Position numbers and translations under genes: made by a program. 17,168 nt of DNA. It comes from Pseudomonadota bacterium (GTDB taxonomy: Bacteria > Myxococcota_A > Bradymonadia > Bradymonadales > GCA-2716585). Location: NCBI GenBank assembly GCA_005804885.1, contig SYOX01000365.1, positions 1 through 17,168 of the forward strand. The letters run 5' to 3'. This document shows, piece by piece, positions 12,587 through 14,787 of this stretch (the first letter of the stretch is position 1; each line of letters begins with the position of its first letter). The notes under the pieces were generated by a model that was not told the DNA's origin, searched no databases, and worked only from the letters and a program-made list of their open reading frames with translations.

Positions 12587-12919
12587 ATGCGACCTGAATG
12601 TGGTTTCTACACGGACGACCTCGACACCTTCTTCGTCGATCGCCTCGGGGCGATCTGGCACATCGACAAGCGCGGCGAGCCGCTCGATGGAGGCGCCCCC
12701 CGGCGGATCGGGGCCTTGCCTGGCGGTCAGGCGAGGCTGCACCCGAGCATCGTGGAGGAGCGCCTGTGGCAGCTCGTGGCCTGTTGCCCGCAGATCGCCT
12801 GGAAGCTCGACAGCGCCGAGTGGGGGCGATTCGGGGTGGGGGCGGCCACGCGCGAGCTGTCGACGGAGGCCGCCTCGTCCTTCTGGGATCTGATCGGCGA
12901 CGACGACGCGCTCTTTTGA
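12587..12919 (+). CDS. Hypothetical acidic protein (110 aa) immediately upstream of the DnaE-like polymerase gene; probable operon partner
   Basis: Balanced, acidic composition (DDLDTFFVDRLGAIWHIDKRGEPLDGG...SFWDLIGDDDALF), unlike the R-rich overlapping frame. ATG 12587 has AAGGGG upstream and a candidate promoter (TTGACC-17-TTACCC) at 12498-12527. The stop is 72 nt before the polymerase start. Confidence 0.4.
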   Translation: MRPECGFYTDDLDTFFVDRLGAIWHIDKRGEPLDGGAPRRIGALPGGQARLHPSIVEERLWQLVACCPQIAWKLDSAEWGRFGVGAATRELSTEAASSFWDLIGDDDALF

Positions 12920-12990
12920 GGGCCTTGGAGATCCCGGCGAGGGATCTGGGAAGGGCCAGGGCGGGCCGCGGATCGTGGGGGGGAGGTGCG

Positions 12991-14787
12991 ATGTCTCGGC
13001 AGCGGTCGGCGTCGTGGTTGCAGGGGTTCGCGCGGGCGATGCCGGAGGACCCGCGCTATTGGAGGCGGCTGGATCGAGAGCTGCGGATCATCTCGGACAA
13101 GACGCTGGAGGGGTACTTCGAGCGGGTGATCGAGATCCTGGCCTTGACGGAGGACATCCCGCACATGGCGCGGGGGTCGGCGGCCTCGAGCCTGCTGTGC
13201 TATTTGATCGGGGTGAGCAACTTTGACCCCATCGCGGAGGGGATCCGCGTCGAGCGATTCTTGCACGAGCGGCGGGACGACTGCCCGGACGTGGATCTGG
13301 ACTTCCCGTGGGATCGGCATCGGGAGGTGCACGAGCGGGTGTTGATGCGCTGGCCGGGGCAGGCGGCGCGGGTGTCCAACCGGGTGCACTTCCGGATCAA
13401 GGGGGCGCGCCGGGAGGCGCTGCGGCAGCTGGGCTACAAGCCCGCGGATCTGGGCTTGATGAGCGCGGCGCAGCTCAATCGGGTCGAGGAGGTCGCCGAG
13501 GCGCTGCTGGGCGAGCACAGCCACTTCAGCAAGCACGTCGGGGGTGTGGTGGTCCTGCCCGAGGCCATCCCCCAGGAGGCGATGCTGACGCCGACGCAGC
13601 TTCGGCTGGACAAGGACGAGGTCGAGGCGCGCGGGTGGTGGAAGATCGACCTGCTGTCGAGCCGGGGGCTGGGGCAGCTGATGGCGATCGACGGGCGCGC
13701 GCTGGAGGATTATCCGGAGCGGGACGAGGCCACGGCGGATCTTTTGTGTCGGGGGGACGTGCTGGGGGTGACGCAGGCCGAGTCGCCGGCCTTCCGCAAG
13801 CTGGTGCGGGCGGTGCAGCCCAGGAGCCGCCGGGAGGTGGCGATGGTGCTGGCGCTCTTGCGGCCGGCGGCCGCGTCGCGGGGGCGCAAGGCGCGCTTCT
13901 TGAAGCGGTGGCGGGCGGGGCGCGAGGCGACGACGCTGGTCTTCGAGGACGACGCCACGGACCTGATCGCCTCGGTGCTGCGCTGCGACCACGCCGAGGC
14001 CGACGTCTACCGCAGGGCTTTTTCGCGGGGCGACACGCCCCTGGTGGCCGACTTCGCCCGCAGGATTCGGGGCAACCCCCGGCTGGCCGAGATCATGGAC
14101 GACCTCTCCCAGATGCGCTCGTACTCCTTCTGCAAGGCGCACGCGCTGGAGATGGCCCACCTGGTCTGGGCGCTGGCGTGGCAGAAGTGCCACGCGCCCC
14201 GGCGCTTCTGGTGGGCGGCGCTCAACCATTGCGCCTCGATGTACCGGGGGTGGGTGCACATCGAGGAGGCCCGCAGGGCGGGGTGGCGGATCGTGGGGGA
14301 GCTGGCGCCGTGGCGGATGGACGGGGACGCCCTGGTGGGGTCGCGCTGCCAGCTGGCGCTCTTCGAGCCTGGGGCCGTGGAGCAGTACGTGCGGCGCGGG
14401 TGGTGGCGGGAGGGGGGCTTCCTGCCGGGCTTCGGGTTGAGGGCGGACGAGGCGGGGATCGCGTTCACCGGGCTCGTGGCCACGGGGCGCCCCTACCGCT
14501 CGGAGGACGGCCACGCGGTGACCTTCGTGACGGTCGGGGTGGGCGGTCGCTACGTCGATCTGGCCATCGAGGGGCGAGTGTCAATGCGCGGCGTCGACGC
14601 CATCGAGGGGCGCGGGCAGCTGCGGGCGAGCTACGGCTCGCCCTTCGTCCAGGTCGAGGCGCTCAGGCTGCTGCGGCTGGGCGCCGAGGGCTTTGAAGAG
14701 ATCCCCTTTGATCACGCAGAGATAGGGGCCGCCCTGGAGCGGGACCGCGAGGGCAAGGCCCGCGATCTGCCCGACCCCGTCGATTGA
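12991..14787 (+). CDS. Compact DNA polymerase III alpha (DnaE)-like C-family polymerase lacking the N-terminal PHP domain and the C-terminal beta- and tau-binding regions; retains palm catalytic Asps, fingers and an OB fold
   Basis: 598 aa. Recalled E. coli DnaE blocks align colinearly: [24 protein letters not shown]...[24 protein letters not shown] vs YEERLEYELRVIEKMGFPGYFLIV...[32 protein letters not shown] vs MPDFDIDF (catalytic Asp pair); HVGGVVVLP vs [34 protein letters not shown] vs [25 protein letters not shown] (third catalytic Asp); [18 protein letters not shown]...VLALLRP vs VFQLESRGMKDLIKRLQP...[31 protein letters not shown] vs [24 protein letters not shown]; and an OB-like [33 protein letters not shown] vs [34 protein letters not shown]. 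ATG 12991 has GGGGGAGG 4 nt upstream. Confidence 0.75.
   Translation: [598 protein letters not shown]

Follow-up and report, generated by a model that had tools for sequence, protein, structure and literature searches.

Surveys of bacterial C-family DNA polymerases published in 2013 and 2026 sort these enzymes into DnaE1-3 and PolC (PMC3919608, PMC12926913). Both treat the PHP domain as a standard domain of the family, and a PHP-less form is described in neither. In open-access full text, a search for PHP-less DnaE returned nothing relevant besides the split minimal Pol III alpha that Iyer et al. reported in 2021 from group 2.2 jumbo phages (PMC7824862); one study found PF07733 enriched in a marine jumbo phage group, without architectural analysis. 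Here we analysed a 17,168-nucleotide (nt) stretch of bacterial DNA (contig SYOX01000365.1, positions 1 to 17,168, G+C ~71%; hereafter the window). An original prediction, made from the letters alone, had placed in it a compact DnaE-like polymerase of 598 amino acids (aa) without a PHP domain, preceded by a small acidic open reading frame (ORF). Judged from sequence and predicted structure, this protein is a C-family polymerase consisting of palm, short thumb, truncated fingers, linker and OB fold, with an intact active site. It belongs to a mini-DnaE family that is apparently undescribed. The explanation we favour, at a probability of roughly 0.6, is that the window encodes a phage-derived, domesticated, proofreading-free accessory polymerase.

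The features of the locus are as follows.

12498..12527, + strand: promoter-like element, with TTGACC at 12498-12503, an 18-nt spacer holding ATGTTCA at 12506-12512, and TACCCT at 12522-12527
12587..12919, + strand: ORF of the 110-aa acidic protein, clade-specific, upstream of the polymerase
12977..12986, + strand: Shine-Dalgarno-like run GGGGGGGAGG, read from the sequence, four bases 5' of the polymerase ATG
12991..14787, + strand: 598-aa PHP-less compact C-family (DnaE-like) DNA polymerase, from Pfam, a family profile, AlphaFold2 (AF2) and Foldseek, G+C at third codon positions (GC3) and the ratio of nonsynonymous to synonymous substitution rates (dN/dS)
13288..13296, + strand: codons D100-V101-D102, two predicted catalytic aspartates (PDVDLDF), aligned with E. 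coli D401 and D403
13642..13650, + strand: codons K218-I219-D220, conserved lysine and predicted third catalytic aspartate (KIDLL), aligned with E. coli K553 and D555
14350..14364, + strand: codons Q454-L-A-L-F458, candidate beta-clamp-binding pentapeptide in the linker between fingers and OB fold, from motif enrichment
14434..14703, + strand: C-terminal OB-fold domain, residues 482-571, from AF2 strands, Foldseek and a weak profile alignment

Domain architecture of the polymerase

In Pfam scans the 598-aa protein matched PF07733 over its gathering score (E 3e-31; 109 bits against a cut-off of 23.9), consistent with a Pol-beta-like nucleotidyltransferase palm carrying three aspartates. It also matched the fingers family PF17657 (E 2e-11; 43.8 bits against a cut-off of 22), with positions 22-100 of the 166 in that profile covered; no PHP, HHH or OB match was found in the protein by Pfam. 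The top NCBIfam profile was DnaE2 (NF004225, PRK05672; E 4.5e-47, positions 309-790 of 1047), with a score of 160.7 bits that is far under its cut-off of 939. DnaE1 matched with an E of 1.9e-30 (NF004226, 105.6 bits against a cut-off of 1002), and every DnaE1 equivalog in NCBIfam scored far under its own cut-off.

A family profile built from 105 members aligned contiguously with E. coli DnaE over residues 315-788 (E 5e-64) and weakly at the OB region (973-1025). The N-terminal PHP domain of C-family enzymes is absent, the profile alignment beginning at E. coli residue 315, and so are the (HhH)2 beta-binding and tau-binding domains of DnaE1, with no HHH match and an alignment that ends at residue 788. 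Three regions of E. coli DnaE have no counterpart: residues 1 to ~300 (PHP), ~790-960 (distal fingers together with the (HhH)2 domain that binds beta) and, at the C terminus, 1079-1160 (the tau-binding tail), with domain names as in the published E. coli structure. The thumb is shortened relative to E. coli alpha. What remains holds C-family fingers, and all of the catalytic and deoxynucleoside triphosphate-binding residues are present. D100, D102, K218 and D220 align with E. coli D401, D403, K553 and D555 and are invariant in 105 homologues, together with R61-G62-S63, R89, R341 and H384.

The AF2 model, with the family alignment as input, reached a predicted local distance difference test (pLDDT) of 92.5 and a predicted template modelling score (pTM) of 0.91. 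Foldseek matched it to M. tuberculosis DnaE1 (7pu7, TM-score 0.74), to T. aquaticus and E. coli Pol III alpha and to PolC. Residues 482-571 form beta strands in the model, with Foldseek matches to the OB folds of SSB, RPA and Stn1, which points to a DnaE1-type OB fold after the core; a clade-specific helix (residues 575-592) follows it. Because Pfam, the profile alignment, the invariant residues, AF2 and Foldseek agree, the anatomy given in the original prediction is correct: a PHP-less compact DnaE-like core with three catalytic aspartates, confirmed as PF07733, lacking the tau-binding tail and carrying an OB fold that is seen by structure and not by Pfam.

Compared with DnaE1, the protein has the same palm, thumb and fingers fold, the same catalytic residues, and an OB fold placed after a linker with a clamp-type motif. 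Unlike DnaE1, it is half the size and is without PHP, distal fingers and (HhH)2, and the tau-binding domain. The resemblance to DnaE2/ImuC lies in the best-scoring curated profile, which is DnaE2, and in the general type: both are extra C-family enzymes of the non-essential kind that stop after the OB fold and have no tau-binding tail, and both are predicted to be without proofreading. DnaE2, however, is ~1050 aa long and keeps a degenerate PHP and full fingers, whereas the window protein has neither PHP nor distal fingers. DnaE2 is also encoded with imuA and imuB under SOS regulation, whereas the window locus is without them and has no convincing LexA box. The earlier statement that the gene is not in an imuA-imuB-dnaE2 cassette accordingly stands, with imuA and imuB absent from both the window and the 21.8-kb public locus.

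The polymerase starts at the ATG at 12991. Its frame is open for 131 further codons upstream, to 12598 (729 aa), as might be expected of a split, frameshifted or mis-assembled dnaE or dnaE2 whose PHP domain lies nearby. This extension is Arg-rich, with G+C at the first, second and third codon positions of 0.85/0.70/0.57 versus 0.72/0.48/0.94 in the polymerase gene, and a Pfam scan of the 729-aa frame found no added domain in it. We read it as non-coding because of this off-frame composition, the GC3 of 0.57 versus 0.94 and the lack of a Pfam domain. The original prediction had left room for a PHP domain encoded upstream; Pfam found none in the 598-aa protein, the 729-aa frame or the upstream ORFs. 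The identical gene is called as 598 aa in four independent public assemblies, where the 110-aa ORF is called too, and the internal deletions relative to DnaE are family-wide. Moreover, more than 100 family homologues of ~560-600 aa all begin at the palm, the same N-terminus that had been proposed from the letters, and because of them the gene is not a split dnaE. This alternative is excluded by the sequence evidence, and we assign it a negligible probability. Both ORFs were found on the same strand at the coordinates first given for them; the gap between them counts 71 nt, not 72.

Fifty residues without secondary structure in the AF2 model link the fingers to the OB fold. This linker holds QLALF at residues 454-458, placed as the DnaE internal clamp motif is; we take the internal clamp-binding pentapeptide of E. 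coli DnaE, 920-QADMF, to lie at the equivalent place. The strict pattern Qxx[LM][FW] was found in 10 of the 59 long-linker members, always 12-15 residues before a conserved GxW anchor, and a relaxed pattern in 29 of the 59. Shuffled linkers gave a mean of 0.8 strict motifs, with a maximum of 4. On this enrichment QLALF is a candidate beta-clamp-binding motif. The protein had been described as lacking clamp binding; its (HhH)2 beta-binding domain is indeed absent, but the broader statement is doubtful because the linker carries QLALF.

A mostly viral family and its replication modules

A search of 5.8 billion proteins gave 328 matches, the best 120 of which are nearly all 545-650 aa long and start at the palm. 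Cellular genomes were surveyed as one genome per species over 185,579 species. Among the best 80 matches examined there, three cover the query through the OB fold (41-45% identity) and the rest are ordinary DnaE; the three come from two metagenome-assembled genomes (MAGs) labelled Myxococcota/Myxococcales and one Legionellales MAG, the last on a viral-looking contig. The best 80 loci in IMG/VR, whose contigs reach 232 kb, are all full-length relatives (38-43% identity). Large and predominantly viral, the family occurs on at least 80 IMG/VR contigs and mostly in uncultured large phages. Members P0004, P0007 and P0061 also have phage-like contexts. Only one record of the deposited phage collection, LR756508.1, aligns over 80% or more of the query (35% identity); it is an uncultured phage of 484 kb. 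A 670-kb contig of small ORFs bearing a family member is taken to be a huge phage.

ORFs were called in the IMG/VR loci and then clustered. A block recurs in which a primase (Toprim) is followed by a DnaB-like helicase, in some cases endonuclease III, and the polymerase. The helicase cluster is found in 64 of 84 loci. This viral helicase shares 49-51% identity with its counterparts in the jumbo phages PA5oct and Atu_ph07, and the carriers are relatives of jumbo phages of that type. The original prediction had seen a free-standing polymerase of no recognised family. It is indeed absent from the two surveys, but it is not isolated, being part of a large, mostly viral family that usually sits in phage replication modules.

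This arrangement raises the possibility that the window protein replicates a resident replicon, either extrachromosomal or integrated, or serves as a second replicative polymerase together with the helicase and primase of the host, much as it does in the phages. Viral copies adjoining a DnaB-like helicase and primase would fit such a role, as would the OB fold and candidate clamp motif, which are typical of replicative DnaE. The cellular locus, however, has none of the companion genes: no helicase, primase, initiator or partition gene was found in the 12 kb upstream or 2 kb downstream within the window, nor in a 102-kb public contig region. Unlike a main replicase, the protein also has no proofreading domain or docking site. 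We regard a replicase role as improbable.

The split minimal Pol III (PMC7824862) resembles the mini-DnaE in being a phage-associated, PHP-less, pared-down C-family core, and a phrog_11778 piece of it occurs in the same IMG/VR loci. It differs in consisting of two small proteins from distant genes with no OB fold, whereas the mini-DnaE is a single chain of 560-600 aa with one. The window polymerase matched phrog_11778 only marginally (E 6e-4), with no domain past threshold. Other reduced-size viral C-family polymerases came from fold searches and PHROGs, namely phrog_11165, the 569- and 466-aa proteins of Pseudomonas phage PA5 and gp339 of Bacillus phage G; at no more than 24% identity they are not members of the mini-DnaE family. 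The various shortened DnaE-like phage proteins among the BFVD viral structures are likewise all at most 24% identical.

Three further observations concern the viral loci. A 190-aa protein (cluster c5, 27 loci; for example L158 12490-13062, - strand) has the palm motifs PDIDIDL, KLDLL, ALIRPG and KSHA. It matches phrog_11778, has homologues in PA5oct and other jumbo phages, and looks like half of the split minimal Pol III that Iyer et al. reported; it co-occurs with the 560-aa mini-DnaE, and such phages would have two reduced C-family enzymes. Directly 3' of the polymerase, 10 viral loci have a conserved 104-aa ORF (cluster c13; L160 9647-9961, + strand). It gave a weak Imm32 match in Pfam (E 5e-5, under the cut-off) and is distinct from the small protein of the window. 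Finally, P0114, of a ~640-aa subgroup, is encoded on a 190-kb contig (L175 7071-9923) and adjoins the gene for an Erv1/Alr sulfhydryl oxidase; RNase HII and thioredoxin are encoded nearby. Erv1/Alr is typical of eukaryotic giant viruses, and because P0114 adjoins such a gene the ~640-aa subclade may be of non-bacteriophage origin.

The upstream acidic ORF and its promoter element

The 110-aa protein encoded upstream of the polymerase has an isoelectric point of 4.6. A word-indexed search with it found no homologue, and tblastn, the route to synteny first proposed for this ORF, found none in related loci. Exhaustive phmmer returned three homologues:

P0150, 111 aa, 45% identical to the window ORF, at L178, with no polymerase within the 3.2-kb contig
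P0151, 104 aa, 44% identical, at L177, ending 11 nt 5' of polymerase P0002 (73% identical to that of the window)
P0152, 97 aa, 52% identical, at L181, ending 29 nt 5' of a mini-DnaE that is 63% identical over the first 141 residues

The small ORF is therefore found directly upstream of a polymerase in two other high-GC loci, L177 and L181, which supplies the synteny that tblastn did not. Metagenomes scanned for further pairs of this kind yielded only the 5' half of a locus already in the set. The four small proteins share invariant GFY, TFxxD, GxxW, LP, HxSxVEExxW and FWD motifs, and the dN/dS of the small protein is 0.39-0.65. By sequence comparison the ORF is real, syntenic and specific to the high-GC clade.

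Two other views of this ORF were rejected. That it is a spurious orphan is overturned by the phmmer homologues and by the contexts at L177, L181 and L178. That it is a family-wide partner is ruled out, as six-frame translations of the other loci, cellular and viral, gave no match to a hidden Markov model (HMM) of the four proteins. The partner ORF of the original prediction thus holds for the high-GC clade, but not for the other cellular clade, the viral loci examined or one locus of its own clade. At that locus (L165), the small ORF is not upstream of polymerase P0003, which is 65% identical to that of the window. Its ribosome-binding site, start codon and ~8 codons (MRRVWRFY) survive in the upstream alignment, and because these persist the locus points to a deletion of the small ORF.

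Ahead of the small ORF-polymerase pair lies a conserved element, TTGACC-NN-RTGTTCA. In the window, TTGACCAGATGTTCA (12498-12512) occurs once; all 200 shuffles were without it. An exact TTGACCNNATGTTCA also lies 109 nt 5' of the small ORF in L181 and ~175 nt 5' of the polymerase in L165/L166, and was found in 0 of 174 other loci. Upstream of the polymerase-less small ORF, L178 has TTGACCTTGTGTTCA. In L182, which represents the 5' portion of locus L177, the sequence is TTGACA-N7-ATGTTCA. The element is followed by TTTAGTTTAGT in L165, L181 and L178, and in the window TACCCT comes 18 nt after TTGACC. A generic sigma-70 scan did not report the element. We read it as a sigma-70-type promoter that would drive the small ORF and the polymerase, and its conserved spacer element could be an operator. 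A promoter here had been called plausible, and conservation across five aligned related loci strengthens that call.

A polymerase without the small ORF (L165 4395-4600) and a small ORF without the polymerase (L178 1277-1708) carry near-identical promoter elements of the form TTGACC-NN-RTGTTCA-YCTGTTRTTTAGTTTAGT. SRR29965079 and SRR29965080, the source samples of the two loci, are sister samples. Should both loci belong to one organism, they may represent a pair that is unlinked but co-regulated and shares a promoter element.

Chromosomal context and proposed role

Genes in the window encode a methyltransferase, an alpha/beta hydrolase, a major vault protein homologue, a transporter of the major facilitator superfamily, a cupin and MeaB with methylmalonyl-CoA mutase. 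Solitary cellular copies of the polymerase occur in MAGs, some labelled Myxococcota, amid housekeeping genes. A second cellular clade comprises proteins of ~590 aa with 67-75% identity among themselves and 41-44% to the window protein. Their neighbours are the nuo operon, thrS-infC-rpmI-rplT-pheST, or rsmJ-like and comM/citrate synthase genes on either side. Apart from the small ORF in the high-GC clade, no conserved neighbour was found in the cellular loci. The polymerase gene of the window has a GC3 of 0.94, equal to that of the neighbour genes, and a dN/dS of 0.23-0.33 against relatives that are 60-73% identical, with dS near saturation. In the chromosome, the gene shows host-like codon usage and evolves under purifying selection, as part of a small conserved operon.

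These data bear on the idea that the gene is part of a decaying prophage or mobile-element remnant, the polymerase being leftover viral cargo without a role in the cell. The family is mostly viral, the neighbours of cellular copies are not conserved, and in a crude, midpoint-rooted neighbour-joining tree the window clade (P0001-P0003) groups with members in phage-like contexts, its nearest relatives outside the clade, with the ~590-aa clade apart. A decaying gene, however, would be at odds with a host-like GC3, a dN/dS of 0.23-0.33 and the retention of all invariant residues. The promoter and two-gene order are also kept among relatives whose polymerases are just 60-73% identical, and the flanks are metabolic and housekeeping genes. 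No tRNA gene, flanking repeat or other phage-type gene was seen around the polymerase in Pfam and precomputed annotations. We consider a remnant unlikely.

A role in anti-phage defence or in a diversity-generating system had also been suggested by the original prediction. None of 8 proteins (the polymerase, its partner and neighbours) matched PADLOC-DB, and Pfam scans of the neighbouring proteins found no reverse transcriptase domain. A repeat scan of 11800-15200 found no meaningful repeat pair and no template/variable pair. Such a role finds no footing in these searches, and we hold it to be very unlikely.

Several other features of the region were observed. Directly downstream (14846-16429, + strand) lies the gene of a 527-aa protein with LASGC as a lipoprotein-type signal and an extended acidic region rich in Asp and Ala. 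Its earlier assignment as an SGNH hydrolase is weak: the GDSL matches fall under the Pfam cut-offs, and in none of the relatives is the gene conserved beside the polymerase. In the signal-peptide region of this gene, four copies of a 9-nt periodic repeat (GCGCTGGCGGCG-like; 14867-14914, + strand) encode an Ala/Leu run, a feature that is probably trivial. The major vault protein homologue (894 aa; 6214-8898, + strand) matched MVP_shoulder (E 6e-20) and Vault_3 (E 6.5e-11); vault proteins are familiar mainly from eukaryotes. Outside the window, on the public contig of 102 kb (L001 21463-21797), a 1427-aa WD40-repeat protein and the methylmalonyl-CoA mutase/MeaB cluster flank the region, consistent with a large, complex bacterial genome.

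We therefore return to a phage-derived, domesticated accessory polymerase and the way in which it might act. The gene would have been captured from a phage and then domesticated. Without PHP, the enzyme would be able neither to proofread nor to dock epsilon, which would make it a low-fidelity accessory polymerase and not the chromosomal replicase. The host sliding clamp probably recruits it to primer ends through QLALF, and the OB fold would hold the single-stranded template. The polymerase might then carry out gap filling or lesion bypass, in the manner of DnaE2 but without ImuA and ImuB. For the small acidic protein, the likeliest role is that of an accessory factor or regulator, co-expressed with the polymerase it serves.

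A number of points weigh against this account. The cellular role of the polymerase is wholly inferred. The strict clamp motif is limited to 10 of the 59 long-linker relatives, and 46 short-linker sequences, the largest marine clade among them, are without the whole insert, so that the largest viral clade has the motif deleted. The neighbours of cellular copies change from genome to genome, which also fits repeated recent insertions of a mobile gene. The small protein is unrecognised by Pfam, NCBIfam, PHROGs and PADLOC profiles and has no recognisable fold. The promoter element fits the M. xanthus LexA box CTRHAMRYBYGTTCAGS (PMC9705874) at 13 of 17 positions with the left half-site missing, although that consensus may not be the one used by this host; SOS control of the pair is not claimed on such a fit. 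A more elaborate version is correspondingly tentative. In it, the domesticated phage-derived polymerase and the acidic protein would be co-regulated by the operator-like element in a high-GC lineage whose relatives are labelled Myxococcota. The enzyme would be a clamp-recruited mutagenic or repair polymerase without ImuA/ImuB, representing a fifth DnaE class in which PHP is dispensable.

As a natural minimal C-family polymerase, the protein stands for a large family that folds confidently, in the predicted model, without PHP, beta-binding and tau-binding domains. If this is true, PHP would be dispensable for the folding and activity of C-family enzymes, and an enzyme of 560-600 aa would be convenient for structural and enzymological work. 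The abundance of the family on contigs with PA5oct- and Atu_ph07-like helicases and primases is relevant to the replication of such large phages, and it weakens the idea that C-family enzymes are scarce in viruses. The chromosomal copies, with their conserved promoter and clade-specific partner, would offer a test case for the conversion of a viral replicase into an accessory polymerase of the cell.

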